Shown here: positions 1,496 through 22,468 of the stretch, piece by piece
Position numbering within the stretch: position 1 is the first letter of the stretch
Layout of the letters: every line of letters begins with the position of its first letter
Origin: Candidatus Dojkabacteria bacterium
GTDB taxonomy: Bacteria > Patescibacteriota > Dojkabacteria > J137
DNA: 64,000 nt
NCBI GenBank assembly: GCA_040006935.1
Contig: JBDTVZ010000001.1
Coordinates: 103,772-167,771 of the forward strand
Direction: 5' to 3'
Position numbers and translations under genes: made by a program
Notes under the pieces: generated by a model
Seen by the model: only the letters and a program-made list of their open reading frames with translations
Told to the model about the DNA's origin: nothing
The model's database searches: none

Positions 1496-1518
1496 ATTAC
1501 AAGTTTTAATATATAACT

Positions 1519-2735: not shown

Positions 2736-2741
2736 AAAAAA

Positions 2742-3368: not shown

Positions 3369-3986
3369 TTAAAAACCCAAATCCTCGTTTACTAAAATAA
3401 CTTGCACTCTTCCAGGTAACATTGGAGATACATTATTTAAAATAAACAATTCTCTAACATTACTTTCTGGCATGCCGTATGCAGCTTGAACTCTTTTATT
3501 TTCCTGAGGAAGGACGTCTTCGTAGATTCTTTTTAGTCCACTATCTAAATCTTTTACAATTTTCTTTGTACTAGCAATCACAATAACTTTGTCTGCACCA
3601 TATGCTAAAGCTGGAATTTGACTTCCACTGTTACTTGCCCAAATTAGTTTCCCATCTTGTGTCACTGCATGAGTACTTACAACTGCAAATTCATGAACAC
3701 CACCTATTTTACTCATTTCTTTTTTCTGAGTGTTTCGGTCTAAAGAGTTCATTTGTGTTCTGACAGAATTATATTTTCCTGATTCATTTAATTCTTTTGT
3801 TAAACCAATTTGTTCTAGAGTTTTAGATGTCATTGTCATAACTTCAGAACCTTCTGTAATTAGTTCCAATGCTTGAGCCTTAGCTTTTTCTCCATTTTCT
3901 ACAACATATACTACAAAGCCATTTGACTTAAGACCTTCGACTGCTTTATTTACCTCATCTGAATTCGGAATTGAAACGTGATCCAT
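3369..3986 (-). CDS. LUD domain protein (LutC/YkgG-like, DUF162)
   Basis: 205 aa. GGVHEFAVVSTHAVTQDGKLIWASNSGSQIPALAYGADKVIVIASTKKIV fits the LUD pattern G.TGA.FA.AETG...SNEG....P..H...G.EK.V. Confidence 0.55.
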   Translation of the reverse strand: MDHVSIPNSDEVNKAVEGLKSNGFVVYVVENGEKAKAQALELITEGSEVMTMTSKTLEQIGLTKELNESGKYNSVRTQMNSLDRNTQKKEMSKIGGVHEFAVVSTHAVTQDGKLIWASNSGSQIPALAYGADKVIVIASTKKIVKDLDSGLKRIYEDVLPQENKRVQAAYGMPESNVRELFILNNVSPMLPGRVQVILVNEDLGF

Positions 3987-4081
3987 AGTTAATTATTAAT
4001 AAATATTAATTTATTCTAACTCGCTACTATGCTAAAATACAAGTACATACAAAAATTATATATACTAACTATTTAGATACT

Positions 4082-4414
4082 ATGAAAGAATGTACTAGTG
4101 CCGATCCAGTAAATATAACAATTAAAGCCATTGGAGGTAAATGGAAAGCAGTCATAATGTGGCATTTAAGCTCTGGAACCAAAAGGTTTAGTGAATTACA
4201 TAAGCTTGCCACCGGAGTTACTCAAAAAATGCTTACACAACAACTAAGAGAAATGGAAAGAGACGGACTAATTGAGAGAAAAGTCTATCCTATTGTTCCA
4301 CCTAAAGTAGAGTATTCGATTTCCAAATATGGTCAAACACTTCAACCTGTTTTGAAAGCTATGGCTGAATGGGGTGAAAGACATGAAAAGAACTTACGCG
4401 ATAATACTCTGTAA
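4082..4414 (+). CDS. HxlR family transcriptional regulator
   Basis: 110 aa. CPVNITIKAIGGKWKAVIMWHL...KRFSEL...GVTQKMLTQQLREMERDGLIERKVYPIVPPKVEYSISKYG is the classic HxlR/DUF24 winged helix. Confidence 0.85.
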   Translation: MKECTSADPVNITIKAIGGKWKAVIMWHLSSGTKRFSELHKLATGVTQKMLTQQLREMERDGLIERKVYPIVPPKVEYSISKYGQTLQPVLKAMAEWGERHEKNLRDNTL

Positions 4415-6934: not shown

Positions 6935-7015
6935 ATGAAAGATTCAAATGTTATAAACAATGTTTAAAAGTTCTTTGAGATTCAACGTTAAAACATTTAA
7001 ACCTTCCAACGTTTA

Positions 7016-7795
7016 TTATTTTTTAACTTTAATTGTCTCCAAACTCTTCTGTAGTGATTCCATTAGCTCATCCATATTAGTTGCTTTAGGTGCTTCGTTC
7101 TTCGAAATTTTAAAAGTTTTATTTTTAGCTTTTGCTTCAATAACTTTCTTTAATCCAGTAATATAATCATCTTTGAAGTCTTCGGGAGTAAATTTCTCAG
7201 TCATATTGTCTATTAAATCCATAGCCAAATCCAGTTCTTTTTCTTTCAAATTTGTTGTTTTTGGTACTTTTAATTCTTTAATAGGCTTGATTTCGGAATC
7301 ATATCTAAGTTGATTTAGGATTAAAATGTCTCCATCAAATTTTAATGCACATAAGTGCTCTCTGTTTTTAAAAACAAACTCAGCGATTCCTACTTTTCGA
7401 GATTTCTTTAAAGACTGTGCAAATAACGAATATGTCTTTTCTGCACCCTCAGCAGGTTCCAGATAATATGGTTTTTCGTAATATTTAGAATCAATTTCAT
7501 CTTCTTTTACAAAGCATTCGATATCAATTGTTTTACTTCTATGAATTGTAACTTTCTCAAAATCCTCTTCTTCTAAAATTACATAATCACCTTTACTAAA
7601 TTGAAATCCTTTAACTACATCTTTCCAGGAAACTTCCTTTCCTGTATGTGTATCTATTCTTGCATAACGAATTGGAGATTTATCTTTCTTACTTAACAAA
7701 TCTAAATCTAATTCTATAGATTCTGAACCTGTATATAAATTCACTGGGATGTAGATTAATCCAAAAGATATTCCTCCTGTCCAAATAGGTCTCAT
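7016..7795 (-). CDS. ku: Ku protein (non-homologous end joining)
   Basis: 259 aa. MRPIWTGGISFGLIYIPVNLY...IRYARIDTHTGKEV matches the bacterial Ku N-terminus and core. Confidence 0.9.
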   Translation of the reverse strand: MRPIWTGGISFGLIYIPVNLYTGSESIELDLDLLSKKDKSPIRYARIDTHTGKEVSWKDVVKGFQFSKGDYVILEEEDFEKVTIHRSKTIDIECFVKEDEIDSKYYEKPYYLEPAEGAEKTYSLFAQSLKKSRKVGIAEFVFKNREHLCALKFDGDILILNQLRYDSEIKPIKELKVPKTTNLKEKELDLAMDLIDNMTEKFTPEDFKDDYITGLKKVIEAKAKNKTFKISKNEAPKATNMDELMESLQKSLETIKVKK

Positions 7796-7947
7796 AGAAA
7801 AATAATAATAGTTATATTACAAATATAGTATATTACTTTAATTAATAAATACCAAGAAGCTACTCCTTGTTAGAATATTTTTAGCTAACATAGATGCTAA
7901 ATTTTCCTTTTTCTGATATTTTATGTAAGTAGATTATTTTTATTTTC

Positions 7948-9945
7948 ATGGGTAAATCCAATATTTTAGCCAACGGTCAACTTCTAGTAGGATTAGATCA
8001 ATTTGCACAAGTAGACGACTTATATTTCCCATATATTGGGCTAGAAAATCACGCTTCGGCAACCTTTACGCATAAAATTGGGTTAATGGTAGATAATCAA
8101 TTCACATGGTTAGATGATGGTAAATGGGAATTTTGTTTTAATTGTGAATTATTAGATAAACGAAAACTAATCACAGCCATTAATACAGAATTAGGAATCC
8201 AATTAAAGTTTAATGATGAGGTTTACAATGAAAAGAATATTTTTCTTAGAGGTATTCAAGTTTCGAACTTAGCACCTAGAAAAAGAACAATAAAAATATA
8301 CTTCAATCAACAATTTGAAATATACGAATCTCATAGAGGAGATACTGCATATTATGATCCTACAAAAAAAGTAATTATTCATTACAAAGGAAGAAGATTA
8401 TTTCTAGTTAACGCAAGAATTAGAGAAGATGATACGTATTTTGATGATTATTCTGTAGATATAATGGATCCAGTTAATAATACAGGTAGTTTTAAAGAAG
8501 CGGAAAATGGTAAATTAACTAAAAGAGCTATTGAGTATGGACTTGTAGATTCAACTATTGGATTAACTATAAATATCGAAGCCAATAGAATTAAAACAAT
8601 TGATTATTGGCTTACAGTTTCCAAAACGATGGATGAACTTAAAGAGCTTAATGAATATGTAATAAGAAAAACTGTTGAATACTTGTTAGGATCTGCTAGA
8701 GATTATTGGAAGGCTTGGACAAATAAAATTGAACGAGACTATCGAGATCTTACTCCTGATGAGATTTGGCTTTATGAGAGATCATTAGAAATAATGAGAT
8801 TAAATACAGACTCAACTGGAGCGATCATTGCATCAGTTGATGCTGATTTACTGAAATATGGTAGGGATACATATAGTTATGTTTGGCCTAGAGATGCCGC
8901 AATGGTAATAATGGCTTTTGCAAAGTCTGGATATGATGATCAACTGAGAAAGGTCTTCGAATTTTTTAAAAATATAATTTCAGAAGAGGGTTATTTCATG
9001 CAAAAGTATAGAGCAGATGGTTCACTTGGAAGCTCTTGGCACCCTTGGGTTTATAATGGACAAAAAGAATATCCAATACAGTTAGATGAAACAGCTTTGA
9101 TAGTATACGCCCTTTGGGAGGCATTTAATAATGAGAAAGATGTTGAGTTTCTAGAAAGTATTTATAATGATTTAGTTGTAAAAGCAATAGATTTCATTAT
9201 TACAAGAATTGACCCAGAAACTGGAGTGGTCAAACCAAGTTATGATTTATGGGAAGAAGTATTTGCGACTTCTACTTTTGCGAGTTGTACAGTATATGGG
9301 GCATTAGTTGCTGCAAGTGAATTGGCAAAATTTTTAGGGAAGGAACATAAGACAATTGACTATGCAAACTATGCTGAAAAAGTTAAGCAAGGGATTTTAA
9401 AATATCATTATAATGAAAAAGATAAAGCATTCTATAAATATGTTACCTTTTTAGAAGAAGAGGGTAGAAGTACCTTGAAACCAAGTGAAGTGGTGGATTC
9501 CGCAAGTTTTTATGCTCTCCACAGATTTGGAGTCATAGATATAAATGATGAAAGAATGATACACATGAAAAACGCAATGCATAAGAAATTACAAAATATC
9601 TCCGGAATTGGTGGCTATCCTCGTTACGAAAATGATATTTATTTCAAGAATGAAGATACTGGAAATGGAAATCCTTGGGTACTAACAACACTTTGGATGG
9701 GACAAGCAGAAATTAAGCTTGCAAAAAATTTAGACGAACTTAAACAAACTAAAATGTATTTAAACTGGGCTTTCAATCATGCTTCACAGGGCGGGATGCT
9801 TTCTGAGCAGCTAAATGCAAACACTGGAGAACAACTTTCTGCCACACCTTTAACTTGGAGCCATGCTGAATATGTAGTAACTGTTGTGGAATATTTACGG
9901 AAATATGAAGAGTTATCTAAACAAACTTCTCCCCAAAGCCTTTAA
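7948..9945 (+). CDS. glycoside hydrolase family 15 (glucoamylase/glucodextranase-like)
   Basis: 665 aa. YVWPRDAAMV and SYDLWEEVF (DLWEE catalytic motif) are characteristic of the GH15 (alpha/alpha)6 barrel. Confidence 0.75.
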   Translation: MGKSNILANGQLLVGLDQFAQVDDLYFPYIGLENHASATFTHKIGLMVDNQFTWLDDGKWEFCFNCELLDKRKLITAINTELGIQLKFNDEVYNEKNIFLRGIQVSNLAPRKRTIKIYFNQQFEIYESHRGDTAYYDPTKKVIIHYKGRRLFLVNARIREDDTYFDDYSVDIMDPVNNTGSFKEAENGKLTKRAIEYGLVDSTIGLTINIEANRIKTIDYWLTVSKTMDELKELNEYVIRKTVEYLLGSARDYWKAWTNKIERDYRDLTPDEIWLYERSLEIMRLNTDSTGAIIASVDADLLKYGRDTYSYVWPRDAAMVIMAFAKSGYDDQLRKVFEFFKNIISEEGYFMQKYRADGSLGSSWHPWVYNGQKEYPIQLDETALIVYALWEAFNNEKDVEFLESIYNDLVVKAIDFIITRIDPETGVVKPSYDLWEEVFATSTFASCTVYGALVAASELAKFLGKEHKTIDYANYAEKVKQGILKYHYNEKDKAFYKYVTFLEEEGRSTLKPSEVVDSASFYALHRFGVIDINDERMIHMKNAMHKKLQNISGIGGYPRYENDIYFKNEDTGNGNPWVLTTLWMGQAEIKLAKNLDELKQTKMYLNWAFNHASQGGMLSEQLNANTGEQLSATPLTWSHAEYVVTVVEYLRKYEELSKQTSPQSL

Positions 9946-10011
9946 TGGGCTCACGGCCGAAATAAACTCATTCATGGTATAATTACCCTTGGCTATCTTT
10001 TATAAAACTTT

Positions 10012-11154
10012 ATGAAAGACCAAACAAATATAGTATATCTTTTCCATATCTATCAGCCACCGTGGCAAACCAAAGAGGTTTTAGAGGAAAACTACAACAA
10101 ATTTTATCTTCCCTTATTAGAAGTATTAGAATCTAGGCCGAATTATAAGGTTACATTGAATATTTCGGCTTCCCTAACTGAGCAATTGGCTAGAGAAGGT
10201 AAACAAGAGTTCTTTGATAGAGTAAGAGTTCTAGTTAAGAAAGGTCAGATTGAACTAACTGGTAGTGCTGCATATCATCCAATTCTTCCATTAATTCCAG
10301 AGAAAGAAGCAATAAGACAAATTAACTTAAATGATGAGATTAACTCAAAATATTTTAAGGAAGAATGGACACTAGCAAAAACTCGTGGGTTCTTTTTACC
10401 TGAACTTGCATATTCAACAAAAGTTTCAAAAATTATAAAAGGCTTAGGTTTTGATTGGCTTTCTGTGGATCAAACTACTGTGGCTGAGCAAGTTAATTGG
10501 AGTAAACAATATTCAGATAAAAGCTCTGGAATTAAATTACTAATTAATAACCGAGTGTTCTATACTCCCGATGTAAAGAAATTCTCCCAGAATAAATACA
10601 ATGTAATAATTAGTGATGGTGAAAATCAAATAAATAAAGATAAACAAGACATAGATTGGAGTTTATATCTAAGTCAAAGTGATCCTGGTTTGGAATCTAG
10701 ATACTTAACTGTGAGTGAATATTTAAAGGAAGTCGAAAATGAACAAGATATAATTCCTACAGAAAATAGTAATTGGCAAATTAAAGAGGAAGAAAAGAAA
10801 GTTGGTAGTTATTACCATCTTTGGAAAAATGATAATGAACCTATACACAAATTACTCTGGGAGTTTTTATTTGATGTAATGAAAGTTGTGGAACAAAATA
10901 ACTCTGACGATAATTTTAATTTTGCTAGAACAGAACTAGATAAAGGACTCGCTAGTTGTACTTGGTGGTGGGTAGATGGAAGAATATATGGATATAATCC
11001 TACGGCAGTAGTAAAAGGACTCGATATTATTGTGAATGCAATGCGAACCTTGAAAGATATTAACCTTGAAACGAGAATTAGAATTGAGAGATCTTACTCA
11101 GAAATAGTTTTTGAAGTATGGAAAAGGCATTGGACAAATTTTAATAAAAACTAA
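10012..11154 (+). CDS. glycoside hydrolase family 57-like protein
   Basis: 380 aa. N-terminal LFHIYQPPWQ matches the GH57 HxHQP motif. Confidence 0.55.
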   Translation: MKDQTNIVYLFHIYQPPWQTKEVLEENYNKFYLPLLEVLESRPNYKVTLNISASLTEQLAREGKQEFFDRVRVLVKKGQIELTGSAAYHPILPLIPEKEAIRQINLNDEINSKYFKEEWTLAKTRGFFLPELAYSTKVSKIIKGLGFDWLSVDQTTVAEQVNWSKQYSDKSSGIKLLINNRVFYTPDVKKFSQNKYNVIISDGENQINKDKQDIDWSLYLSQSDPGLESRYLTVSEYLKEVENEQDIIPTENSNWQIKEEEKKVGSYYHLWKNDNEPIHKLLWEFLFDVMKVVEQNNSDDNFNFARTELDKGLASCTWWWVDGRIYGYNPTAVVKGLDIIVNAMRTLKDINLETRIRIERSYSEIVFEVWKRHWTNFNKN

Positions 11155-11156
11155 AT

Positions 11157-12290
11157 ATGAAAATTGCAATTATAAGTTCGAATACTTTACCCACACCACC
11201 TGCTGGAGTTGAAATTCCGGATGGATGGACCACATCTATTCATAATCTAATTTCCGAAATAACAGAGGGATTGGTTAATAAAGGCCACGATGTAACTTTG
11301 TATGCTAGTGGTGATTCTAAAACAAGTGCTAAATTAAAAAGTGTTTGGGATGTATCTTCAAGTGAACTTGAAAAAATAGAGAATCAGTTTGGATACTATT
11401 GTTACGATCACATACTTACTTCCTACTGTTTTGAAGATTTAAAAAAAGAAAAATACGACATTATTTACACTTACCACACTTTTGATAGTGGAATATATGG
11501 GAATTTAATAGAGGCTCCAATAGTCTCAACATTCCATGGCTCAGCCCGTGATGATTACTTAAAAATATGGGGAACTAAAATAATTAGCCCTAATATTTAT
11601 ATCGGGATTTCAGATTTCCAAATTAACTCTATACCTTATCTACATTTTTACGATCGAATTTATCATGGCATTGATGGGGATTTTTTTAAGTATCAGTCCC
11701 ATGTAAATGACAATTTAGTAACCGTGGGACGAATTTCCACAGATAAAGGAACAGATATTTCTATTGATATAGCTAATGAATTAAATAAACAATTAGATAT
11801 ATTTGGCACAACTAATTACAAACCTTTGATGGATGAATTGTTGGAGAAATCTAAAGATCATAAGATTAACTTTCATGGGCAAAAGGAACAGAATATTATA
11901 AAACACACCGTGTCTAATTCCAAAGCCTTTATATTCCCTATCAGGTGGGATGAACCTTTTGGATTAGTCTTAATCGAAAGTCTTGCCTGTGGAACCCCCA
12001 TTATTGCTTTTGCAAATGGCTCTCTTCCGGAAATTGTAGAAGATGGAAAGACAGGTTTTTTAGTAAATTCTGATGAAAGTAATATTAGAGGGGATTGGAT
12101 AACAAAGAAGACAGGGAGGGAGGGGTTGCTCGAAGCGGTGAATAAGTTATATTCTTTGCCCATGGAAGAATATTTACAGATGAGAAAGAATTGCAGAGAA
12201 AGTTTTGAACAAAGATTTACAAAAGAAATAATGATTAACAACTACGAAAAACTTTTCCAGAAGATTATTAGTGAAAAAATAGAAAAATGA
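11157..12290 (+). CDS. glycosyltransferase family 4 (GT-B, group 1)
   Basis: 377 aa. EPFGLVLIESLACGTPIIAFANGSLPEIVEDGKTGFLV is the EX7E motif region. Confidence 0.8.
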   Translation: MKIAIISSNTLPTPPAGVEIPDGWTTSIHNLISEITEGLVNKGHDVTLYASGDSKTSAKLKSVWDVSSSELEKIENQFGYYCYDHILTSYCFEDLKKEKYDIIYTYHTFDSGIYGNLIEAPIVSTFHGSARDDYLKIWGTKIISPNIYIGISDFQINSIPYLHFYDRIYHGIDGDFFKYQSHVNDNLVTVGRISTDKGTDISIDIANELNKQLDIFGTTNYKPLMDELLEKSKDHKINFHGQKEQNIIKHTVSNSKAFIFPIRWDEPFGLVLIESLACGTPIIAFANGSLPEIVEDGKTGFLVNSDESNIRGDWITKKTGREGLLEAVNKLYSLPMEEYLQMRKNCRESFEQRFTKEIMINNYEKLFQKIISEKIEK

Positions 12291-13009
12291 AAATATCAGT
12301 AATAACCTCAACTTACAATCGAAAGGATTTTTTAATCGAATGTATTTCAAGTGTGCAAAAGACAATATTATTACCTTTACGAAACGAAGTCCAATTTGAA
12401 CATATCATTTACGATGATGGTTCGACGGATGGTACTGAGAAAATATTTGAGAACCATAATTACATTAATCTAAAATTTATAAGAAATACAGACAATCATG
12501 GGCAGGCATATGGAAGAAATAGAGCAGTAGAAGCAGCTACAGGAGAATACCTTTTTGTATTAGATAGCGATGATATTTTACTCCAAAGAACACTATTTAA
12601 TTTTGCGGATATAGCAAGAAAGAACCCTGATACACTTTGGTTTGTTTCTGATTTTTTAAGAGTAGATGATCAACTTAGATATTTACCTGGACAGGACTAC
12701 TTTGGTTGGAATTTTAAGAACGTGGAGGAAATTTTAAATGCAATCTTCAAAGGAGAACATTATATACAGCATAATGTATTTTTTAAAAAAGAATTATTTT
12801 TAAAATCTGGTGGATATGATGAAAAGATGCATATGGCAGAAGATTTAGATGTATTTGTTAAATTTCTATTAAATAAATCATTCCCTATATATACTAATTT
12901 CCTCTCGCATCTGCATAGAACTCACTTAAGTAATTTATCAAAAGATATGAATTTAGAGGTACATAAAAAAGACGCACAAGTTTTATTCGAAAAATATAAA
13001 AATAGATAA
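12287..13009 (+). CDS. glycosyltransferase family 2
   Basis: 240 aa. ISVITSTYNR...DDGSTDGT...VLDSDD are GT-A DxD features. Confidence 0.75.
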   Translation: MKISVITSTYNRKDFLIECISSVQKTILLPLRNEVQFEHIIYDDGSTDGTEKIFENHNYINLKFIRNTDNHGQAYGRNRAVEAATGEYLFVLDSDDILLQRTLFNFADIARKNPDTLWFVSDFLRVDDQLRYLPGQDYFGWNFKNVEEILNAIFKGEHYIQHNVFFKKELFLKSGGYDEKMHMAEDLDVFVKFLLNKSFPIYTNFLSHLHRTHLSNLSKDMNLEVHKKDAQVLFEKYKNR

Positions 13010-13010
13010 T

Positions 13011-14531
13011 ATGATAGAAAAAGATTTGAAAATATTACAGGTTGTTGGTGAAATTTATCCGTATTCTAAAACTGGTGGACTTGGTCATGTGACTGCAGAT
13101 ATTACATATAACCTTGCAGACTCAAATAATGACGTGACAGTATTCACCCCACTTTACGGAAGTGTTTGGAAAATGATTAAGAAGAAAAATGTAGAAACAG
13201 TGCTTACAGATATTCCCATTTACATTGACTCTACTACTACAATAACTTGTTCCTGTCTAAAATATGTTAAACACAATGGAAGTAGAAAGCCTATAACCTT
13301 CTACTTTATTAATCATTACGATTTTTTTGGAAGGTATTCCAGAAACTTATATTCAAGTCCAGACATGCATAAAAGGCTTTATTTCTTTAGTAAAGCTGTT
13401 GTTGTAATAATAAAAGAACTGGGATTAAATTTTGACATAGTCCATATACACGATTGGATGGTAGGTCTATTTCCAAAACTACTAAAAGAAGATTTTAACT
13501 TTAGTAGTCATAAATCACCAAAGGTCATTCTAACTATCCATAATCTAGCTTTTCAAGGCTCTGGTTTCTTGAACTTACATAGGTTTGAGAAAAAATTTCA
13601 AAGACCACCCGCACAAATTCTTCCACCATATAGTAATGATGAAAAATGGGAGAAAGTAAATTTTTTAAAGCAAGGTATAAAACATGCAGATATGATCACC
13701 ACTGTAAGTTCAACCTATGCAAATGAAATTGCAACTCCAGAATACGGAGAAGGATTGTCTAGTTTTCTATCGAAATATGGACCAATCTATGGAATTATTA
13801 ACGGAATTGATTACAAAGCATTTAATCCTGCTACAAGTAAGAATGTTCCTGAGAACTTTAATACACTAAACTTTACGGATAAGAAAAGGAAAAATAAATT
13901 ATATCTTATTAAAATGTTAAAACTACCAAAACATTTTATTAATTACCCTTTTATAATAACAACTCATAGAATAACTTATCAGAAAGGCTATGATCTGATT
14001 TTAAAAATATTCAGAACCTTGATGAAAATGAATATTGTATTTGTAGTATTAGGAGATGGAGATAAAAGATATGTAGATAAATTTCACGAACTAAATAAAA
14101 GCTACAAGAATTTTGTTTTCATAACTCCGTATTCAGATATTACAGAAGAGAAATTACTCGCGGGATCAGATATTCTTCTTTGTCCTTCAATTTACGAACC
14201 TTGTGGAACAGCACATATGAAAGGAATGAGGTATGGTGTTGTTCCAGTAGCAAGAAAAACTGGTGGCCTTGCAGATACTATTTCAAACTTTGATGAGAAG
14301 AAAAACTCAGGAACTGGATTTCTATTCTTATCGTATGATAAGAAATACTTTCTCAATAGCATTAAAAGAGCAATTAGAATTCATACAGAAAATAAAAAGG
14401 TATGGAAAGAAATAGTATTAAGATGTATGAACCAATCATTTACATGGGAGAAGAGTATAGAAGAATATATATTTCTATATCGAAAGCTCTTAAAAAAAAG
14501 TAAGAAGACAAAACTACTTAAGTCTAGATAG
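13011..14531 (+). CDS. glgA: glycogen/starch synthase-like glycosyltransferase (GT5, GlgA-like)
   Basis: 506 aa. N-terminal EIYPYSKTGGLGHV corresponds to the GlgA KTGGLGDV ADP-glucose-binding motif. GT-B C-terminal half is present. Confidence 0.75.
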   Translation: MIEKDLKILQVVGEIYPYSKTGGLGHVTADITYNLADSNNDVTVFTPLYGSVWKMIKKKNVETVLTDIPIYIDSTTTITCSCLKYVKHNGSRKPITFYFINHYDFFGRYSRNLYSSPDMHKRLYFFSKAVVVIIKELGLNFDIVHIHDWMVGLFPKLLKEDFNFSSHKSPKVILTIHNLAFQGSGFLNLHRFEKKFQRPPAQILPPYSNDEKWEKVNFLKQGIKHADMITTVSSTYANEIATPEYGEGLSSFLSKYGPIYGIINGIDYKAFNPATSKNVPENFNTLNFTDKKRKNKLYLIKMLKLPKHFINYPFIITTHRITYQKGYDLILKIFRTLMKMNIVFVVLGDGDKRYVDKFHELNKSYKNFVFITPYSDITEEKLLAGSDILLCPSIYEPCGTAHMKGMRYGVVPVARKTGGLADTISNFDEKKNSGTGFLFLSYDKKYFLNSIKRAIRIHTENKKVWKEIVLRCMNQSFTWEKSIEEYIFLYRKLLKKSKKTKLLKSR

Positions 14532-14957
14532 TATCTCATCAAGTTTCTTTTCCTGAGATTCTAAATGCATAAGCACAACTTCGATTTCTCTTTCAGCTCG
14601 TTTATTAACAACATAGTCACCTTCAGCTGTTGCTTCGTAATGCCTTCCTTGTAAATTTTGTCCTATCATAATAATGGGCATTAAGAATATTTGAATCATA
14701 TTAGAAATAAACAACCAGAAAGCAAAAGCAGGGAAAGGATCAAACCTTAATTCTTTTGGACCTAGAGTATTCCAAGCAAGCCAAGTCGATGTCCAAATAA
14801 AAATAATTATAAAAAATCCCATTGTACCTACATGTTTAGTTATAAATAAAGCTGCCTTATCTAGTGGAGAAAGCTCTAAATGAACCTTATGGTGAGTATT
14901 TATAATTGGCTCACGTAATTTCTTTAAGTCTTCTAATTTTGGAATTTCCATTTTCAT
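14514..14957 (-). CDS. DUF1003 family membrane protein
   Basis: 147 aa with two transmembrane helices, FDPFPAFAFWLFISNMIQIFLMPIIMIGQN.Q and an acidic C-terminal tail, which is the DUF1003 pattern. Confidence 0.5.
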   Translation of the reverse strand: MKMEIPKLEDLKKLREPIINTHHKVHLELSPLDKAALFITKHVGTMGFFIIIFIWTSTWLAWNTLGPKELRFDPFPAFAFWLFISNMIQIFLMPIIMIGQNLQGRHYEATAEGDYVVNKRAEREIEVVLMHLESQEKKLDEILSRLK

Positions 14958-15074
14958 AATATAATGAGTAATTATTATATTCTATAATATACAATTCAAA
15001 GACACAAGGCAATTGACATTCATTTACTAACAATGTAATCTGTATATTGAATTAATTCCCAATTTAAAATACAT

Positions 15075-15479
15075 ATGTTGACTATAAAAAAAAGTTTACT
15101 TAATAAAATGCTTTTTATTGTAATTGTACTTTTTAGTGCAATTGCTTTTATATTTCTAATTTCTAACCCACCAAGTAAAACATCAAGTGGCTATAGTGAA
15201 ATTGAATCGGATGGGAAACAATTAATTCGTATGACCGCCAAAGCTGGTTTTAGCCCTTCTATGGTAATAGCACAGGCAGAGAAACCAACCACTTTAAGAA
15301 TCTCCACAAAAAATACTTTTGATTGTTCATCAACAGTATCAATTCCAGCTCTTGGAGTAAATAGATCACTACCCTTTACTGGAGAGACTGATATAGAAAT
15401 TCCTCCACAAGTTATTGGAACAACTTTAACTGGTACATGCTCAATGGGGATGTACTCTTTCAAAATAAGTTTTACATAA
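15075..15479 (+). CDS. signal-anchored hypothetical protein (cupredoxin-like fold possible)
   Basis: 134 aa. N-terminal transmembrane segment and a beta-rich domain with a C..M.GM motif near the C-terminus. Confidence 0.3.
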   Translation: MLTIKKSLLNKMLFIVIVLFSAIAFIFLISNPPSKTSSGYSEIESDGKQLIRMTAKAGFSPSMVIAQAEKPTTLRISTKNTFDCSSTVSIPALGVNRSLPFTGETDIEIPPQVIGTTLTGTCSMGMYSFKISFT

Positions 15480-15780: not shown

Positions 15781-17172
15781 ATGAGAAGTAAATTTCCACT
15801 CGTGCTTTTCACCATCTTGGTGTTAGTTTTAGGTGTCAGTTTCACAGTTACTTACTATTACCTTAACCGTAATAAGGCAGCACCAGTGCAGAATGTGCTG
15901 GGAACAGCTACACAGTCTGAGCTGTCAATAAAGACCGACATAGATTATATCCATGCAAAATCGGACGGATCCTGTGAGATTAAGTATTCTTATACAGTAA
16001 GCAATACTAGTAAGAAGAATTCCGTGAAAAATTTGAAAACTCAAAGTGATTTACAAAAGACTTTTGGCTCTGATAACTTTGATGTTGTGTCAGTAGATTC
16101 AAAAGATACTAAATTAACAGTAAATAAAAATTTCAATGGAAAGTCTAACAAGGAACTTCTTATTGATGGAAATGATGTAAAGGTAGGAGAGAAGAAAGTA
16201 GTAAGTTTGATTGTAAAATTTAGACCAAATCGAAATAAAGGACCTTTCCAAAATAAGACAGTTATTCAAGGAGATATTGATACCCCTATCACTATAAATA
16301 ATAACAGTACAACTACAGGGTCAAATAATAATGGCAGCGGAGAAGATTCTAATTTACCTCCTAAAACACCTGTCACTACACCTACACCAGCACCCACTCC
16401 TGACACAATTACAACTCCCACCCCAGTACCACCTGCAAGTCCTTCTGATGAAACCAACGCAGACACTACTACCGTAGTAGATGTAACGCCAACTAAGGAT
16501 GAAACTTCCACAAATACTACATCTACAGTAGTTGGTGAAACCTCAACTGTAGTAGCAGCAAGTGAAATATCATTTACACTTCCTGATGACTTGCCAACTG
16601 TGGATGCAACACAAATAACAGACGTTAATGCACCTGAGAAAGATTTAACAGCAAGCGCTGGAATAAGTTTAAATGCAACTTCAGTTAGTGTTTCAGGCTT
16701 ACCCAATACTTCTGGAGTATCTTTTCATACTGGAATGATTGTCAAAGCAGAGGAATGGATAAAGGATAATATTTTAATGTTAAATAGAAACAAAATAATA
16801 ATTGACAAAATCGGTGTGAATGGGCCTATCGATGAAGGAACTACTGAAGCAACTTTAAGTGAAGGCTTTTGGAGAATGCCACAATCCTCTAATCCAGAAG
16901 AGGGTGGCAATACTGTAATCGCAGGACACAGATTCACATATAATTACGGACCTTTAACTTTCTATAATCTTAATCAATTAAGTGCTGGGGATGAAATAAG
17001 AACTATTTGGAACGGGAAAGTTTATAATTACAAAGTAACAAGTTTGAAAATTGTAGACGTAGAAGACCTTGGACCTTTAGAGCCAACAGATAAATCAACA
17101 CTTACTCTTATAACTTGCACATCTTTAACAGATAGTTCTGAGAGATTAGTTGTAAGAGCCACATTAGAATAA
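15781..17172 (+). CDS. membrane-anchored protein with an N-terminal Ig-like domain, a Thr/Pro-rich linker and a C-terminal sortase catalytic domain
   Basis: 463 aa. C-terminal IAGHRF...TLTLITC (sortase His and TLxTC Cys motifs). N-terminal transmembrane segment. A TPTPAPTP linker is present. Confidence 0.75.
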   Translation: MRSKFPLVLFTILVLVLGVSFTVTYYYLNRNKAAPVQNVLGTATQSELSIKTDIDYIHAKSDGSCEIKYSYTVSNTSKKNSVKNLKTQSDLQKTFGSDNFDVVSVDSKDTKLTVNKNFNGKSNKELLIDGNDVKVGEKKVVSLIVKFRPNRNKGPFQNKTVIQGDIDTPITINNNSTTTGSNNNGSGEDSNLPPKTPVTTPTPAPTPDTITTPTPVPPASPSDETNADTTTVVDVTPTKDETSTNTTSTVVGETSTVVAASEISFTLPDDLPTVDATQITDVNAPEKDLTASAGISLNATSVSVSGLPNTSGVSFHTGMIVKAEEWIKDNILMLNRNKIIIDKIGVNGPIDEGTTEATLSEGFWRMPQSSNPEEGGNTVIAGHRFTYNYGPLTFYNLNQLSAGDEIRTIWNGKVYNYKVTSLKIVDVEDLGPLEPTDKSTLTLITCTSLTDSSERLVVRATLE

Positions 17173-17245
17173 ACCAGTAGGGGAAAGACATGTCTTTTCC
17201 CTACTTCTACTACTACAAAATTGATGTTTACAGCTGACGTAGTTT

Positions 17246-18652
17246 TTGGTTTGTGATAGTATGAATAAATTCAATATTTTTATTCTATATTTAATGAAAC
17301 ACAAAGGAATTATTGCAATATTCACTTTGCTAATGATAATTTTAGGCATTAGTGCAATTGCAGTAGTTTTGAGTATACGAAATAGAAATACTGATCAAAC
17401 CGTTTCTGTAGATACAACGCTTCCACAAATTCAAGTTCAAACTGCGATTAGTTATATACATAATAACCCCGACGGTTCAACAGAAATTAAATACACTTAT
17501 ACATTAAAGAATATTAGTGGAACTTATAATATAGAGTCACTTGTAGCACAGAGTGATCTAACGGCAACGTTTTCTCCTCATAGTTTTAGTATTGTCAATT
17601 TAAGTTCTGATTCACTAAACGTAAACTCAACATATAATGGAACGTCTGATCAAGAACTTCTGAATGGAAATGATACTTTAGGTATTGGCCAATCAGTTCA
17701 AATATTTTTAGTAGTCAATTTTGTTCCAGGAGATGACGTTGGTCCGTTTGAAAATAATGTCACTGCTTCTGGAGATATAACCAGGCCTGATACCAGTACT
17801 TCTAACACTTCGTCAGGTGGCAGTTCCTCAGGCGATAGTAATACAACGGGCACACCACCAGGAACTAGCACAGATGGGGGATCTGATACAGGTGGAGATG
17901 ATTCCGGATCCACTACAGAAGGTGGTGGTGGAACCACAATTGGGGAAGAACCGCCTGGAGAACCAATAAGTAGACCTCACCACGGTGGAGGTAGCCATAG
18001 TTCAACCGGAAGTACACCTCCCTCAAATTCTGGTGGAAGCTCTTCAAACGGCAGCTCAAATACAACTACAGGAGGTTCCACAAGTGGAGGAAGTCCTAAT
18101 GTAAATGGAACAGCACAAGTATCATTTACTTTGTCCGCATCTGGGGGAGCACCTATAATAACACAGCCATCATTACCAAATACTTCAGGTTCCTTAAGAT
18201 ATCAAGGATTAGGTTTTTTATATTATACTAGAGAATGGATTGATGATAATGTTTTAAAATTAGAAAGAAATAAAGTAAGAATTAATAAAATTGGAGTGGA
18301 TGCGGAAATATTAGAGGGACAAAATGAAGAAGTATTAGAGTCTGGACTTTGGAGAATGCCACAAACATCGAACCCAGAAGAAGGAGGCAACATGGTAATT
18401 GCTGGTCATAGATTCTTAAGAACTTATAGCCCTCAGACGTTTTACAAGTTAGATCAAGTTCAGGTAGGAGATGAAATAGAAGTAATATGGAATAATAAAA
18501 AGTACATTTATATAGTTAAAGAAACGAAAGAAATTCTTTCTACGGATTTGAGTATTTTAGATGATAAAAAAAATACTTTAACTTTATTCACATGTATTTC
18601 TCAAACTGACAGCTCTAAGAGATTAGTGGTGAGGGCAGAGTTAAAAGAGTAA
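17246..18652 (+). CDS. paralogous membrane-anchored sortase-domain protein with an N-terminal Ig-like domain and a Gly/Ser/Thr-rich linker
   Basis: 468 aa with the same architecture. MVIAGHRF...TLTLFTCI. N-domain motif I.YIH...DGS.EIKYTYT is shared with the upstream paralog. Confidence 0.75.
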   Translation: MVCDSMNKFNIFILYLMKHKGIIAIFTLLMIILGISAIAVVLSIRNRNTDQTVSVDTTLPQIQVQTAISYIHNNPDGSTEIKYTYTLKNISGTYNIESLVAQSDLTATFSPHSFSIVNLSSDSLNVNSTYNGTSDQELLNGNDTLGIGQSVQIFLVVNFVPGDDVGPFENNVTASGDITRPDTSTSNTSSGGSSSGDSNTTGTPPGTSTDGGSDTGGDDSGSTTEGGGGTTIGEEPPGEPISRPHHGGGSHSSTGSTPPSNSGGSSSNGSSNTTTGGSTSGGSPNVNGTAQVSFTLSASGGAPIITQPSLPNTSGSLRYQGLGFLYYTREWIDDNVLKLERNKVRINKIGVDAEILEGQNEEVLESGLWRMPQTSNPEEGGNMVIAGHRFLRTYSPQTFYKLDQVQVGDEIEVIWNNKKYIYIVKETKEILSTDLSILDDKKNTLTLFTCISQTDSSKRLVVRAELKE

Positions 18653-19876
18653 CTGGAGTCTTAAAATAGCTTTCTTCACAAAATCTTGAATTTCTCTTCT
18701 TACAGTCAATTTATTTTCTAGGTTTAAATTTATATTAGAATTTACCAAATTGATAAGTTCTGTTCTGTATCGTTTTAAAAACTTATACTTTACAGAATTA
18801 ATATAAGGAATGTAATTCTTTTCGTAAATATTTGGGAAATTATTTGTATCTAAAGTTTTCGGAACTGCGATAGCAATCACTTTGAATATTCCAAAACTAG
18901 TAACTTCATGGTTCATTTTAATGGAAAATAAGGTTCCCATAATCATGTGTGGTGGAAACCCAAGTTTTACATATTCTTCCCCGTAGCAGATTGGCCAGGC
19001 AACTCCAGTTTTTTCATAGACAGTAACTTCTGAATTGATTTTATTTTGTGATCTTAAAAATGGTGAAATTCCAACATCAAAGAATACTGTGTTATTTTTC
19101 ACCGCTGAAAGTAAAGGCTCAGATTCTGCTTTTTTAACTAATCTATCAAACGCTTTAACAATATCTTTTAAGTCGCCACTATTTGCTCTAGGTTGAGTCA
19201 ATAATTTGAATCCCCCTTTATGTAGTTCCAATGTTGGAGCAAGATTAAATCCATCTAATGCTTTCTGAATTACTTCATCAGAGCCATAAATTTCTTCTAA
19301 TTTATTTCTAGCGATCTCAATGGCAGAGTTAGATGAAAGAGTTAGAGCGTTAAAACACAATTCATTTAGATCTATAGAAACTTCAGGAAAACTTTCCGCT
19401 TTCCAATTATATAAACCCACATCATTTCCTTTTAATTTTGCTCTTAATTTACTTTTTACATTTGAAATTCTATTTTTATTAAGCCAAATTATGACTTCTT
19501 TGTAATCCGGATTCTGAAGAATATGTTGATATTGCTTCCTAAAAATTAATTCTTTAACTAAATCTTTTGTTGCTTTGAATTGTTTATTCCTCTGTGTCAT
19601 TCCGACCGTGCCCGACGGCAGGCGGGACGAAGTCGAGGAACTATCAGAATTAAGTGATTTTGATAAAAGAGACATTGTAAATGGTTTTGAAGTACTAGCA
19701 AGGTTAACTATAGAGTTTTCAGTTGTCAGTTTTGAGTTATTAGAAATAACAACTCCGTCTTTCACAACAACACTTAATGTATTCCATTCATAAGTCGACC
19801 TAACATCCAATTTATAAGGATCAAATCCAGGTTTATAATTTTTGAAGAATTTTCCTAACGTTAAGTTTTTTTCCAC
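18641..19876 (-). CDS. hypothetical protein (a GC-rich repeat is inserted in frame near the N-terminus)
   Basis: Uninterrupted 411-aa ORF in an AT-rich genome. The segment SSSTSSRLPSGTVGMTQ is encoded by a family A hairpin repeat at 19595-19640. Confidence 0.5.
   Translation of the reverse strand: MEKNLTLGKFFKNYKPGFDPYKLDVRSTYEWNTLSVVVKDGVVISNNSKLTTENSIVNLASTSKPFTMSLLSKSLNSDSSSTSSRLPSGTVGMTQRNKQFKATKDLVKELIFRKQYQHILQNPDYKEVIIWLNKNRISNVKSKLRAKLKGNDVGLYNWKAESFPEVSIDLNELCFNALTLSSNSAIEIARNKLEEIYGSDEVIQKALDGFNLAPTLELHKGGFKLLTQPRANSGDLKDIVKAFDRLVKKAESEPLLSAVKNNTVFFDVGISPFLRSQNKINSEVTVYEKTGVAWPICYGEEYVKLGFPPHMIMGTLFSIKMNHEVTSFGIFKVIAIAVPKTLDTNNFPNIYEKNYIPYINSVKYKFLKRYRTELINLVNSNINLNLENKLTVRREIQDFVKKAILRLQLLF
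19595..19640. repeat. family A GC-rich hairpin repeat (TGTCATTCCGA...CGAAGTCGAGGAA), in frame inside ORF 18641-19876
   Basis: 46-bp island of about 65% GC in AT-rich coding sequence. Shares GTCATT..CGA and CGAAG termini with the other family A copies. Confidence 0.6.
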
Positions 19877-19906
19877 TTCTTTTAATTTTTAATTATTAAT
19901 TGATAA

Positions 19907-22468
19907 TTAAATAAGCCCCATCTGTTCCGGATGAATCTTCTTTGGCGTTTTTGGGCCACCCTTGTTGTCATTGCGAGACTCCGTCTTGGACGGAGACGAA
20001 GCAATCCCAGAATTTTCAAATTTATTCAAAATTTCATTCGCCCTCTTAGTTACCTCCACAGGAACCCCAGCAAGTTTAGCCACATGAACACCGTAACTCT
20101 TATTCGCAGATCCGGCTTCAATTTTATGAGTGAACAAAATTTCTTCTTTTTCTTTGTCATCTACAACTTTAACATTAAAATTCTTAATGCATTTATATTG
20201 TGATTCTAAAGAAATTAATTCGTGATAATGTGTTGCAAACAAAGTTTTTGCTTTTATATGTTCTTGTAAATATTCTACTATTGACCAAGCAATTGCAACT
20301 CCATCATAAGTTGAAGTTCCTCTCCCAACCTCGTCTAAAATTATTAAACTTTGACTTGTAGCATTATTTAAGATATTAGCTGTCTCTGTCATTTCTACCA
20401 TGAAAGTAGATTCTCCTTTAGATAAATTATCTGATGCTCCAACCCGTGTAAAAATTCTATCTACTATTTGGAACTTCATTTCTTTTGCTGGAACGTAACT
20501 TCCAATTTGTGCCATGAGTGTTATTAAAGCTACTTGCCTAATATAAGTAGATTTACCGGACATGTTTGGTCCTGTCAGAATATGAATTAAAGAATCCTCA
20601 GAAAATTCTGTTGAGTTTGGAATAAATTTCTCAACTAGTCTTTCTACAACTGGATGACGACCATCAGTAATCAGTGTTGAGTTATCAGTTTTCAGATTCT
20701 CTGATTTCTGAGAACTGACGACTGATGGCTTAGTATAGTTAAACTCTCTCGCTATAAATCCAAAGTTAACAATAACATCAACTTCTGCAATTGCATTTCC
20801 AACGGCTAAAAGCATTTGAGAATAATCTGCGAGTTTATTTCTAATTTCTATAAATAACTCTTGTTCTAATTTTATTAATTTCTCTTCAGCACTTAAAATT
20901 TTAACTTCTAATTCTTTTAATTCTTGAGTTATGTATCTTTCTGCATTTGCTAAAGTTTGCTTTCGAATATAATCCTCTGGGACTTTATCTAAATGAGTTC
21001 GTGTAATTTCAATGTAATACCCAAACACATTGTTGAAAGAGATTTTCAAACTTGTAATTTTAGTTCGTTCAATTTCTCGTTTCTGAATTTCCGCAAGAAT
21101 TTGTTTTGAATTTGATCTTAAATTTCTAAGTTCATCAACCTCAGCATGATATCCTGACTTCAAAATTCCTCCATTATTAATTAAAGCAGAAGGTTCGTTA
21201 TCGATTGACTTGTCAATAAAATCAATGACTTCTTTTATTTTCTCATTTTGCAATTCTCTCATTAAAAATGAAAGTCGTGTAGGTAACTCTTCTGAAGATA
21301 ATTGATTAGAAATATTAATTATATTTATCAAACTATTTTTCAAACCAACGAGGTCTTTTGGATTTGCACCACCAACTCCAATTCTTCCAACGATTCTTTC
21401 TATATCTGCAATTCGATAAAATTTATCTCTTAATTCCGAAATCAGTTGAGGTTTATTAAAAAAGAATTCTACTGAATCATGACGTTCTTTAATCATTACC
21501 ACATTTACTAAAGGATTTAAAATCCAATTTCGTAATTTTCTTTTTCCCATTGGGTTCGTAGCTCTATTAATAATAGAGTAGAGTGTTGGAGAATCGTGTC
21601 CTGAATTTGTAAATAATAATTCCAAATTTCGAATAGTTTCGAAGTCTAACTTCATGTAATCGTTAAAAGAATAACTTTGTATTCCTCTAATGTGTTTAAT
21701 ATCTCCTTTTTGACAATCTATTAAGTAACAAATTAAAGCACCGGCTGAAGTTACAATTGCAATATCTTCAGGCTTAGAATCTTTTATGGTTGATTTCTGA
21801 TTAACATTCAAACCAAAACCTTTTAACGAGCTTACTTTAAACTGTTTTTCTAAAATGATTACTGAATCTTTTAAATCAAACAATTTATCATCTAATTTCT
21901 GTAATCTGTTACCTTGAATCTTTAATATATCTTCATACTGTGAAGCCGGGCAAATTATCTCCGAAGGATTTATTTTCTTTAGCTCATTCTTAAGTGTAAT
22001 CTCAGAATTTGTTGTAAACGACTTTAGTTCCCCAGTAGTCAAATCACAAAAAACTAACCCATAACTGATGACTGATGACTGACCACTCATGACTACTGAA
22101 GCAATGTAATTATTTTTAGAAGAGTCTAAAGAATTTTCATCAATAATAGTTCCTGGTGTAATTATTTTGGTAATACTTCTTTCTACTAATTTACCAGGCA
22201 CTGCCGCTTCCATTTGTTCTGCAATAGCGATCTTGAGGCCAGCTTCAACAAGCCTAGGCATGTAATTTGGAAGAGCATGATAAGGAATTCCTGCTAAAGG
22301 TTGCCTGTTTTCATCTTTTCCTCGGCTCGTAAGCGTAATTCCTAAAACTCTAGATACTGTTTCTGCATCTTCATCAAAGGTTTCGTAAAAATCCCCAAGA
22401 CGAAATAGGATCACTGTTCCAGGATTTTCAGATTTTATTTTTTTGAACTGCTCCTGCATTGGAGTCAT
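19907..22468 (-). CDS. mutS: DNA mismatch repair protein MutS
   Basis: 853 aa. N-terminal GDFYE.F..DA mismatch-binding motif. Walker A GPNMSGKST. TH.HEL motif. The C-terminal tail contains a repeat-encoded segment. Confidence 0.9.
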   Translation of the reverse strand: MTPMQEQFKKIKSENPGTVILFRLGDFYETFDEDAETVSRVLGITLTSRGKDENRQPLAGIPYHALPNYMPRLVEAGLKIAIAEQMEAAVPGKLVERSITKIITPGTIIDENSLDSSKNNYIASVVMSGQSSVISYGLVFCDLTTGELKSFTTNSEITLKNELKKINPSEIICPASQYEDILKIQGNRLQKLDDKLFDLKDSVIILEKQFKVSSLKGFGLNVNQKSTIKDSKPEDIAIVTSAGALICYLIDCQKGDIKHIRGIQSYSFNDYMKLDFETIRNLELLFTNSGHDSPTLYSIINRATNPMGKRKLRNWILNPLVNVVMIKERHDSVEFFFNKPQLISELRDKFYRIADIERIVGRIGVGGANPKDLVGLKNSLINIINISNQLSSEELPTRLSFLMRELQNEKIKEVIDFIDKSIDNEPSALINNGGILKSGYHAEVDELRNLRSNSKQILAEIQKREIERTKITSLKISFNNVFGYYIEITRTHLDKVPEDYIRKQTLANAERYITQELKELEVKILSAEEKLIKLEQELFIEIRNKLADYSQMLLAVGNAIAEVDVIVNFGFIAREFNYTKPSVVSSQKSENLKTDNSTLITDGRHPVVERLVEKFIPNSTEFSEDSLIHILTGPNMSGKSTYIRQVALITLMAQIGSYVPAKEMKFQIVDRIFTRVGASDNLSKGESTFMVEMTETANILNNATSQSLIILDEVGRGTSTYDGVAIAWSIVEYLQEHIKAKTLFATHYHELISLESQYKCIKNFNVKVVDDKEKEEILFTHKIEAGSANKSYGVHVAKLAGVPVEVTKRANEILNKFENSGIASSPSKTESRNDNKGGPKTPKKIHPEQMGLI
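19965..20007. repeat. family A hairpin repeat (TTGTCATTGCGAGACTCCGTCTTGGACGGAGACGAAGCAATCC), in frame in the mutS 3' end
   Basis: Inner hairpin ACTCCGTC-TTG-GACGGAG. It encodes the MutS tail segment IASSPSKTESRNDNKGGP. Confidence 0.65.

Follow-up and report, generated by a model that had tools for sequence, protein, structure and literature searches.

Two adjacent genes in a Candidatus Dojkabacteria genome, here called S1 and S2, were found to encode proteins that carry, on a single polypeptide chain, an adhesin-stalk-like domain, a conserved Leu-Pro-x-Thr (LPxT) motif resembling a sortase sorting signal, and a C-terminal sortase domain. The genes are located in a 64,000-nucleotide stretch of contig JBDTVZ010000001.1 (GenBank assembly GCA_040006935.1, positions 103,772 to 167,771 of the forward strand), which is referred to below as the window and has a G+C content of ~32%. 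The best database matches to proteins of the window were MAG (metagenome-assembled genome) proteins of Candidatus Dojkabacteria, a member of the Patescibacteria/CPR group. Three things were observed directly: the architecture itself, the conserved motif, and the convergent recurrence of the layout at the same spacing in a second group of sortases. As a tentative explanation, to which we gave somewhat less than an even chance, we propose that S1 and S2 could be conserved tandem "self-substrate" sortases. Specifically, each chain would hold its own cargo, LPxT motif, and enzyme, and the motif would be processed in cis or by the tandem partner.

S1 occupied positions 15781..17172 of the + strand and encoded 463 amino acids (aa), and S2 occupied positions 17246..18652 of the same strand and encoded 468 aa when read from a TTG codon at 17246. 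An earlier note on this DNA, made from the letters alone, had described two open reading frames (ORFs) of these lengths that shared an anchor, a beta-rich domain of ~130 aa, a linker of low complexity, and a complete sortase domain. Both ORFs and all of these modules were present, but the 468-aa form of S2 was probably over-extended by the stretch 17246-17293. The real start is probably the ATG at 17294 (MKHKGII…), which yields a 452-aa protein, because the homologs and the NCBI record MEP7103196.1 (P0092, 452 aa) agree on it. In the case of S1, the NCBI model (MEP7103195.1, P0001) was only 382 aa long; it began at Met82, left out 15781-16023, and so lost the anchor and half of the N-terminal domain (N-domain). 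The full 463-aa form was supported because the S1 orthologs (loci L001, L003, and L082) conserve the anchor and the complete N-domain. The order of modules in S1 was anchor, CLIPPER-like domain, Thr/Pro linker, SFTL, LPNTSG, helix, and sortase domain. S1 and S2 were 53% identical across the C-terminal 177 aa, which was the only region aligned by BLASTP, and 38% identical in the N-domain. Judged by these sequences, the two genes are tandem paralogs of old divergence.

The sortase domain was placed at aa 336-463 of S1 (16786..17169, +) and aa 341-467 of S2 (18266..18646, +). As the earlier note had suggested should be checked, we searched Pfam: PF04203 (Sortase) matched aa 340-462 of S1 and aa 345-466 of S2 (E values of 3.7e-27 and 3.5e-27; 95 bits versus a cut-off of 26.6), and this match at the extreme C terminus was the sole Pfam domain in each protein. 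The TIGR01076 cut-off of 39.35 bits was also passed (70.7 bits for S1 and 66.7 bits for S2). The sortase motifs that had been noticed by eye, IAGHRF (His) and TLITC/TLFTC (Cys), were complete, and an RLVV motif supplied the Arg. The catalytic residues of S1 were His383 (16927-16929), Cys446 (17116-17118), and Arg455 (17143-17145), all on the + strand, and those of S2 were His388, Cys450, and Arg459; the triad was invariant in 7 family sequences. An AlphaFold2 (AF2) model of the S2 C-terminal module, built from 11 sequences, had a mean predicted local distance difference test (pLDDT) score of 73.8, a predicted template modeling (pTM) score of 0.70, and a barrel pLDDT of 75-96. When the barrel was searched with Foldseek, the top Protein Data Bank (PDB) matches were 4d70, 8t28, 3tbe, and 8snq (class D, C, and A sortases; E~1e-12), and the best of them, the class D structure 4d70, was barely ahead of the class C and A matches. 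A full-length model of S1, built from 7 sequences, had a mean pLDDT of 48.7 and was too poor for docking or a fold search. Its profile, triad, and fold place the catalytic domain within the sortase superfamily, and transpeptidase activity is predicted. Neither protein reached an NCBIfam cut-off for a class A-F subfamily. The class C model NF033745, which was the best NCBIfam similarity of S1, scored 72 bits with S1 and 64.8 bits with S2 against a cut-off of 160, and the class D models scored 62.9 and 58.6 bits (NF033746, cut-off 165) and 65.5 and 61.9 bits (NF058671, cut-off 140). Because these cut-offs were missed, S1 and S2 were not demonstrably class C or class D sortases.

The sorting-signal-like sequence LPNTSG was found at aa 307-312 of S1 (16699..16716, +), 29 aa upstream of the sortase domain, and at aa 310-315 of S2 (18173..18190, +), 31 aa upstream of the sortase domain. 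The L, P, and T were invariant in all nine distinct family sequences, although the N-domains of these proteins were only 38-50% identical between the S1 and S2 types and the motif was embedded in a linker that was otherwise hypervariable in the family alignment. The x position was N, G, or S, a variability that is also seen in real sorting signals, and the next residue was S or D. A strict LPxT within 70 aa upstream of the domain was present in 12 of 12 family ORFs and in 0 of 169 other sortases, and the background rate of LP.T was 3.5e-4 per residue. The motif was encoded by various codons (TTA, CTA, or TTG for Leu; CCC, CCA, or CCT for Pro; ACT or ACA for Thr). This synonymous variation indicated that conservation acts on the protein, and the LPxT motif appears to be under selection. 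The form LPNTSG was shared by both paralogs in the window, and the orthologs in three genomes had LPNTDL (S1-type) or LPxTS[V/I] (S2-type). The shared form may reflect co-adaptation of the two motifs within a genome, a pattern seen in one genome only. Recent duplication or gene conversion was rejected as its source: no long DNA repeats were found between S1 and S2, and three of the six codons differed synonymously.

Two other conserved elements surrounded the motif. The first, [S/A]FTL, was kept in all family members 13-40 residues upstream of the LPxT motif and was equally conserved; it was SFTL at aa 264-267 of S1 (16570..16581, +) and, by alignment, at aa 293-296 of S2 (18122..18133, +). 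The second was a post-motif stretch, …FH.G…EWIxDN…RNK, that was conserved, predicted to be partly helical, and followed by strand beta1 of the sortase domain. In S1, the sequence EWIKDN (16753..16770, +) formed the core of the predicted helix between the motif and beta1 (helix residues 316-331), and in S2, EWIDDN (18233..18250, +) formed the helix core (residues 40-53 of the AF2 C-terminal module, pLDDT 63-74). The E, W, D, and N were invariant.

The conservation of [S/A]FTL, which has no link to sortase recognition, raised the idea that the LPxT motif is also unrelated to catalysis. It could be a boundary element, a site for glycosylation or another protease, or a partner contact, and S1 and S2 could be housekeeping sortases on long stalks. 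The lack of a confident AF2 contact for the motif and the small sample (nine distinct sequences from about 4-5 genomes) are compatible with this idea. On the other hand, the motif is the exact sortase recognition consensus with only x variable, it was absent from all 169 ordinary sortases, and it recurred at matching spacing in an independent sortase lineage, where it was the sole LPxTG in a 2,569-aa protein (see below). We considered a motif without a role in catalysis to be improbable.

We scanned 185,579 species-representative genomes and JGI metagenomes for related loci, and five close homologs were examined besides. The architecture was limited to a few Dojkabacteria assemblies, namely, the window, L001/L004, L003, L082, and a partial locus (L108), and each family locus was a syntenic tandem pair of an S1-type gene and an S2-type gene. 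The fusion architecture is therefore rare in these data. The 169 other distinct sortases were mostly from Patescibacteria; the main sources were Saccharibacteria, Roizmanbacteria, Acidobacteriota, Chloroflexota, and Shewanella, plus one complete Dojkabacteria genome (AP024679.1), which had an ordinary 221-aa sortase. Most were 190-250 aa long and consisted of an anchor and a catalytic domain, which bore out the statement in the earlier note that ordinary sortases have these two parts only. That note had also allowed that the fused form might be the common one in this lineage, but the short form prevailed among the sampled sortases. The Dojkabacteria catalytic domains were nearest to those of ordinary Patescibacteria sortases (42-48% identity).

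Because all family sequences were derived from MAGs or metagenomes and the NCBI gene call truncates S1, we considered whether the fusion could be an artefact, produced by misassembly, a frameshift, or read-through between a substrate gene and a distinct sortase gene. The same uninterrupted syntenic pairs were present in 4-5 independent, substantially diverged assemblies, no transmembrane (TM) segment or stop-codon remnant was found between the motif and the domain, and an analogous cassette was found on the complete plasmid of a named strain, ZRK35. An artefact was effectively refuted because the architecture is conserved across several genomes.

The N-domain covered aa ~38-172 of S1 (15892..16296, +) and aa ~52-183 of S2 (17399..17794, +); it was located by profile search and, in S1, by beta strands in the AF2 model. 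In its 452-aa form, S2 matched profile positions 1-132 at aa 36-167. The domain was beta-rich and contained the sequence I.YIH...DGS.EIKY.YT..N.S, as the earlier note had described, and 33 columns were invariant in seven sequences. Thus, the N-terminal region was a conserved domain rather than a disordered region, the possibility that the note had raised against its own proposal. No Pfam match to the N-domain was found in S1 or S2 at E<=1, no relevant one was found in the seven family N-domains at E<=10, and NCBIfam and PDB sequence searches yielded no match. In contrast, an exhaustive HMMER search with a family profile of the N-domain matched 1,241 proteins at E<=1e-3. The top matches were giant proteins of up to ~7,500 aa with as many as 40 tandem repeats each, and Pfam and NCBIfam classified the matched repeats as DUF7507, DUF11, or TIGR01451 regions. 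For example, the profile match and the DUF-type match overlapped at 91-196 and 80-208 in P0128 and at 564-668 and 550-676 in P0073. DUF11 (PF01345) and DUF7507 (PF24346) are now called CLIPPER and CLIPPER_2, and both are CnaA-like, immunoglobulin (Ig)-fold stalk domains of fibrillar adhesins (PMC12617251). By transitive profile homology alone, the N-domain is a divergent CLIPPER-type adhesin-stalk domain. The label "DUF11-like" used in the earlier note therefore held through this transitive homology, but not through a direct Pfam match.

Several of the CLIPPER-repeat proteins terminated in LPRTG or LAFTG followed by a TM segment and an RRR tail. Hence, the N-terminal part of S1 and S2 appears to be a type of module that is normally anchored by sortases as cargo. 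Nothing pointed to a role in substrate binding, which the earlier note had suggested for the domain, and because of the conserved internal LPxT motif, we read the N-domain and linker as built-in cargo instead of a binding module.

The remaining N-terminal modules were a hydrophobic anchor and the linker. The anchor comprised aa ~5-28 of S1 (15793..15864, +; predicted by AF2 as a helix at 5-30) and aa 21-44 of S2 in 468-aa numbering (17306..17377, +). It was the only TM-like segment in each protein, as judged by Kyte-Doolittle hydropathy above 1.5 in 19-aa windows, a threshold that S1 passed only in windows starting at aa 1-11. The composition reported for the linkers was borne out by residue counts. 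The S1 linker (aa 173-258; 16297..16554, +) was rich in Thr and Pro (T 29%, P 15%) and had a pLDDT below 35, and the S2 linker (aa 184-287; 17795..18106, +) was rich in Ser, Gly, and Thr (S 26%, G 26%, T 17%). S1-type orthologs elsewhere were 569-585 aa long and contained an extra linker insert of ~100 aa with four Cys residues (…VCYNCG…NC…DCSG…), which was missing from S1 in the window; these ORFs were located at L001 8151-9860, L003 1197-2954, and L082 929-2647. The Cys insert shows that the "cargo" part varies in a modular way.

A parallel to S1 and S2 was found in Chloroflexota. One of the CLIPPER-repeat matches, P0044 (2,139 aa; locus L162, ENA ERZ21862645 ctg35609l), ended in a Pfam Sortase domain, and WPNTGFAPG was located ~29 residues upstream of this domain. 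The same locus encoded a 926-aa protein with a signal peptide, a beta-helix, Flg_new and Big_9 domains, a Sortase domain, and LPYTGFPVG at the equivalent place. The two cassettes were located at 8001-14420 and 19215-21995, and a 196-aa ORF was located between them at 14594-15184. Genes for two-component regulators flanked these ORFs. An additional cassette was identified via tblastn against plasmids: QRN84582.1 (L163), annotated as a "DUF11 domain-containing protein" on the complete plasmid CP069395.1 of Chloroflexota strain ZRK35. This 2,569-aa protein had a cleavable signal peptide, no other hydrophobic segment, and a C-terminal sortase domain, and the only LPxTG in its entire length was the LPQTGFAPG just before that domain.

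In a joint alignment of the two groups, the P and T of the motif were in register together with the catalytic His and Cys. The spacing from the Thr to beta1 was 25-26 residues in the Chloroflexota cassettes versus 28-30 in the Dojkabacteria family. However, the Chloroflexota cassettes ranked only 61-70 of 86 by closeness to the Dojkabacteria catalytic domains; their catalytic domains clustered together and with L073, their nearest relative. Because the two catalytic-domain groups were not sister lineages, the cargo-LPxT-sortase layout arose at least twice. L073 (positions 2-10744 of the Anaerolineales MAG JACKCI010000001.1) was an ORF of at least 3,580 aa in which repeats, LPVTG, a TM segment, a basic loop, a second TM segment, the sortase domain, and a further C-terminal domain of ~150 aa followed each other in frame. 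L073 looks like an unreduced fusion of a canonical substrate and its sortase, in which both TM segments were kept, and it plausibly represents an evolutionary intermediate.

The Chloroflexota cassettes thus shared the layout, the motif-to-beta1 spacing, and CLIPPER cargo with S1 and S2. They differed in having a G at the +1 position followed by F.PG…QP…Y, no EWIxDN helix, a cleavable signal peptide in place of a long anchor, giant multi-repeat cargo, and a sortase domain from another lineage. Cargo-LPxT-sortase cassettes could more generally be a class of self-anchoring surface proteins that evolved convergently.

The mechanism that we propose for S1 and S2 would proceed as follows. The N-terminal hydrophobic segment, which was seen in the sequence, would direct export and hold the protein in the membrane. 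The LPxT motif, 28-30 residues before beta1, would enter the groove of its own sortase domain or that of the tandem partner. The catalytic Cys would then cut the bond between Thr and Ser or Asp and leave the stalk thioester-linked to the enzyme. Finally, an amine acceptor, in all likelihood a peptide of the cell wall, would resolve the intermediate, fix the C terminus of the stalk, and free the catalytic domain. As a consequence, each protein would be a single-turnover, self-anchoring device. We judged it likely that the LPxT motif engages the active site of the fused sortase, and we were less sure, at slightly under an even chance, that the motif is actually cleaved and transferred. What speaks for cleavage is that the motif appears to be a genuine L-P-x-T beside an intact triad and not a mimic of one. 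In addition, engineered SrtA-LPETG fusions self-cleave spontaneously (PMC2901362), and there are precedents for +1 residues other than Gly, such as the LPxTATN-specific class D sortase in NCBIfam and PDB complexes of SrtA with LPATS and LPATA peptides.

Several observations weighed against self-processing. The +1 residue was S or D, but never G, in the Dojkabacteria family. The SFTL and LPNT segments had pLDDT values of ~35-52 in the model of the S2 C-terminal module and were not confidently docked. The conserved post-motif stretch is what would be expected of a permanent structural or regulatory element packed on the domain. If the ~22-residue anchor is uncleaved, the stalk would already be tied to the membrane, processing would fix it at both ends, and the enzyme would be spent after one use; for a reduced genome, to discard an enzyme in this way would be oddly wasteful. 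The window is 64 kb of a 516-kb contig, and other sortases or canonical substrates may be encoded elsewhere in the genome. The N-terminal element of class C sortases can occupy the groove uncleaved (PMC3493515). Moreover, the 196-aa ORF beside P0044 consisted of a TM segment, LPITG, ~26 aa, and a sortase-like region without cargo, which hints that the motif might serve the enzyme and not the cargo.

The main rival explanation was a pseudo-substrate latch. S1 and S2 would then be trans-acting, membrane-anchored sortases on long stalks, and the LPxT motif would sit uncleaved in its own groove with an auto-inhibitory or specificity role. The CLIPPER domain and the flexible linker would let the catalytic domain reach out through the envelope. 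Such an enzyme would be reusable, and its N-terminal anchor would be like that of ordinary sortases. The latch would also account for the conserved 28-30-aa segment and helix after the motif, for an S or D at +1 that could disfavour cleavage, and for the cargo-less ORF, and it would resemble the class C lids, which mimic LPXT in the groove. Nevertheless, the known lids contain DP[F/W/Y] and no scissile Thr (PMC3493515), whereas the family has an invariant L-P-x-T beside an intact triad, and genuine tethered motifs were cleaved in the engineered fusions. Canonical substrates for a trans-acting enzyme were not seen nearby. The cargo-less ORF scored below the Pfam threshold (24.8 versus 26.6 bits), apparently lacked the catalytic Arg, and was probably degenerate. 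Finally, the Chloroflexota cassettes have a cleavable signal peptide, no membrane anchor, and cargo of 900-2,500 aa, which makes a reusable housekeeping role implausible for those proteins. We considered the latch unlikely, although it merits more weight than any other rival.

We also weighed a self-polymerising pilin, in which the Thr of the LPxT motif would be joined to a Lys in the next CLIPPER domain and S1 and S2 would alternate in a covalent fiber. The tandem pair was conserved in all family genomes, the best NCBIfam similarity of S1 was to class C, which is the pilus-polymerising class, and CnaA-like stalk domains are a type used in pili and adhesins. However, the pilin-like role that the earlier note had offered for the N-domain was not supported by a Lys nucleophile. 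The N-domain alignment contained no invariant Lys, and the Lys of "VKF" was Asn in S2. In a by-eye register, the Asn of GPFxN and the D/N of QSDL were conserved. A Lys-Asn intramolecular isopeptide triad occurs in some CLIPPER members only (PMC12617251). Furthermore, each subunit would retain an N-terminal membrane anchor unless signal peptidase cuts it, the class C cut-off was missed, and a DP[FWY] lid was absent. We regarded a pilin as very unlikely.

A more specific form of self-processing would have the Dojkabacteria proteins act as covalent "harpoons" of an episymbiont, an idea that we considered quite speculative and scarcely probable. In this scheme, the N terminus of the stalk would stay in the symbiont membrane with a pre-loaded sortase at the tip, and the C-terminal Thr of the stalk would become joined to an amine in the host cell wall and tether the two cells. 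The scheme would explain why the anchor, absent from the free-living Chloroflexota cassettes, is retained, why the linker is long and flexible, and why the enzyme is used only once.

The earlier note had stated that no LPXTG-type substrate was evident in the window. This was correct for canonical C-terminal signals, since neither the window nor the other Dojkabacteria DNA that we examined encoded a protein with such a signal, but it overlooked the LPNTSG inside S1 and S2 themselves. Ordinary Patescibacteria sortase loci carried substrates with LVNTG, LPRTG, LARTG, and LAETG. The sorting-signal detector was checked against Gammaproteobacteria loci L058-L076 (Shewanella, Woeseiaceae, and others) as positive controls. 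In these loci, proteins of ~690-740 aa were encoded directly upstream of small sortases and ended in FPATAT, LPQTA[ST], or MPQTAS, after which came a TM segment and a basic tail; these pairs resemble the "marine/class GN sortase plus target" pairing that is already known. Two candidate substrates in the window were rejected. The first was a 134-aa membrane-anchored Cupredoxin_1 protein (15075..15479, +; E 1.3e-6) encoded directly upstream of S1; its LPFTG (aa 99) was inside the Cupredoxin_1 match, and no hydrophobic tail followed. The second was the product of an ORF at 31307-32626 (-), in which LPSTSG was 245 residues from the C terminus and was not followed by a sorting-signal tail. Both motifs were judged to be chance matches.

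The region upstream of S1 and S2 encoded a DUF1003 protein and the small cupredoxin-like membrane protein and, farther away, glycosyltransferases. In the syntenic locus L001, one glycosyltransferase each of the GT4, GT2, and GT5 families was encoded, and the gap that corresponds to the cupredoxin site (7566-8151) contained no ORF of at least 100 aa. Downstream, a 411-aa ORF (18641..19876, -) was convergent with S2 and overlapped its 3' end by 12 nt; conserved counterparts were in the same place in L001 (11402-12571) and L002. On inspection, its product had SxxK (ASTSKPF), SxN (SSNSAIE), and KTG (EKTGVAW) motifs and no obvious signal peptide. An assignment as a penicillin-binding protein or beta-lactamase-like protein was not supported, as there was no sequence match in Pfam, NCBIfam, or PDB. 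The gene beyond this ORF may encode a MutS-like protein.

Between S1 and S2, 6 nt past the S1 stop codon, we found an intercistronic RNA hairpin with a perfect 13-bp stem and a 4-nt loop (17176..17205, +). Its minimum free energy was -18 kcal/mol (z -4.16), and none of 200 shuffled sequences folded equally well. The hairpin was not flagged by the terminator scan because no T-tract follows it; it may act between the two genes as a stabiliser or attenuator. Matches in the promoter and terminator consensus scans of the window were at chance (14 versus 13.3 expected and 2 versus 1.6 expected, respectively), and so no operon claim was made for S1 and S2 beyond their adjacency.

The usual picture of sortases has two components, a membrane enzyme and separate substrates that are retained by the tail of the sorting signal. 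If S1 and S2 are self-processed, natural examples of single-turnover, self-sorting surface proteins would be known for the first time. S1 and S2 would also represent a route of envelope decoration for cells with minimal genomes or cells without membrane-proximal sortases, and compact natural tags for self-ligation in protein engineering could be derived from them. If the motif is a latch instead, it would be a new mode of autoinhibition, with a genuine LPxT in place of the DP[FWY] lid. Public labels such as "class D sortase" (for the 382-aa truncation), "sortase", and "DUF11 domain-containing protein" hide the architecture. In the full-text literature that we searched, coverage of which was incomplete, no description of a natural substrate-sortase fusion was found; only the engineered fusions and the class C lid came up.

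S1 and S2 can be compared with four known systems. Like canonical pairs of a sortase and an LPXTG substrate, they combine adhesin-stalk cargo, an L-P-x-T motif, and a barrel with catalytic His, Cys, and Arg. Unlike those pairs, they are single polypeptides in which the motif is internal, ~150 residues from the C terminus, and is followed by S or D and not G; the catalytic domain replaces the hydrophobic tail of the canonical signal, and a basic tail is likewise missing. With no TM-like segment after it, but a helix and the sortase domain instead, the internal motif fails two of the three features that define a canonical sorting signal. The class C lid (PMC3493515) and the motif region of S1 and S2 both precede beta1, lie near helices, and are proposed to occupy the groove of their own chain, and class C structures were among the top fold matches of the S2 model. 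However, the lid is not LPXT, has no scissile bond, and comes after the helices, whereas the LPxT of S1 and S2 comes before the helix; in addition, S1 and S2 have neither a DP[F/W/Y] between the helix and beta1 nor a C-terminal hydrophobic segment. The engineered SrtA-LPETG fusions, of the design His/biotin-SrtA-LPETG-target, also place an enzyme and a motif on one chain, and they cleave themselves (PMC2901362). Those fusions are synthetic and have the order enzyme-motif-cargo, whereas the order in S1 and S2 is cargo-motif-enzyme, so the cargo, and not the enzyme, would be the acyl donor. Finally, the C-terminal Hint-type domains of Hedgehog proteins form a thioester or ester at the junction with their cargo, pass that cargo to a nucleophile in one turnover, and are released. 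The mechanism proposed for S1 and S2 would follow the same logic by analogy only, with an unrelated fold and unrelated chemistry.

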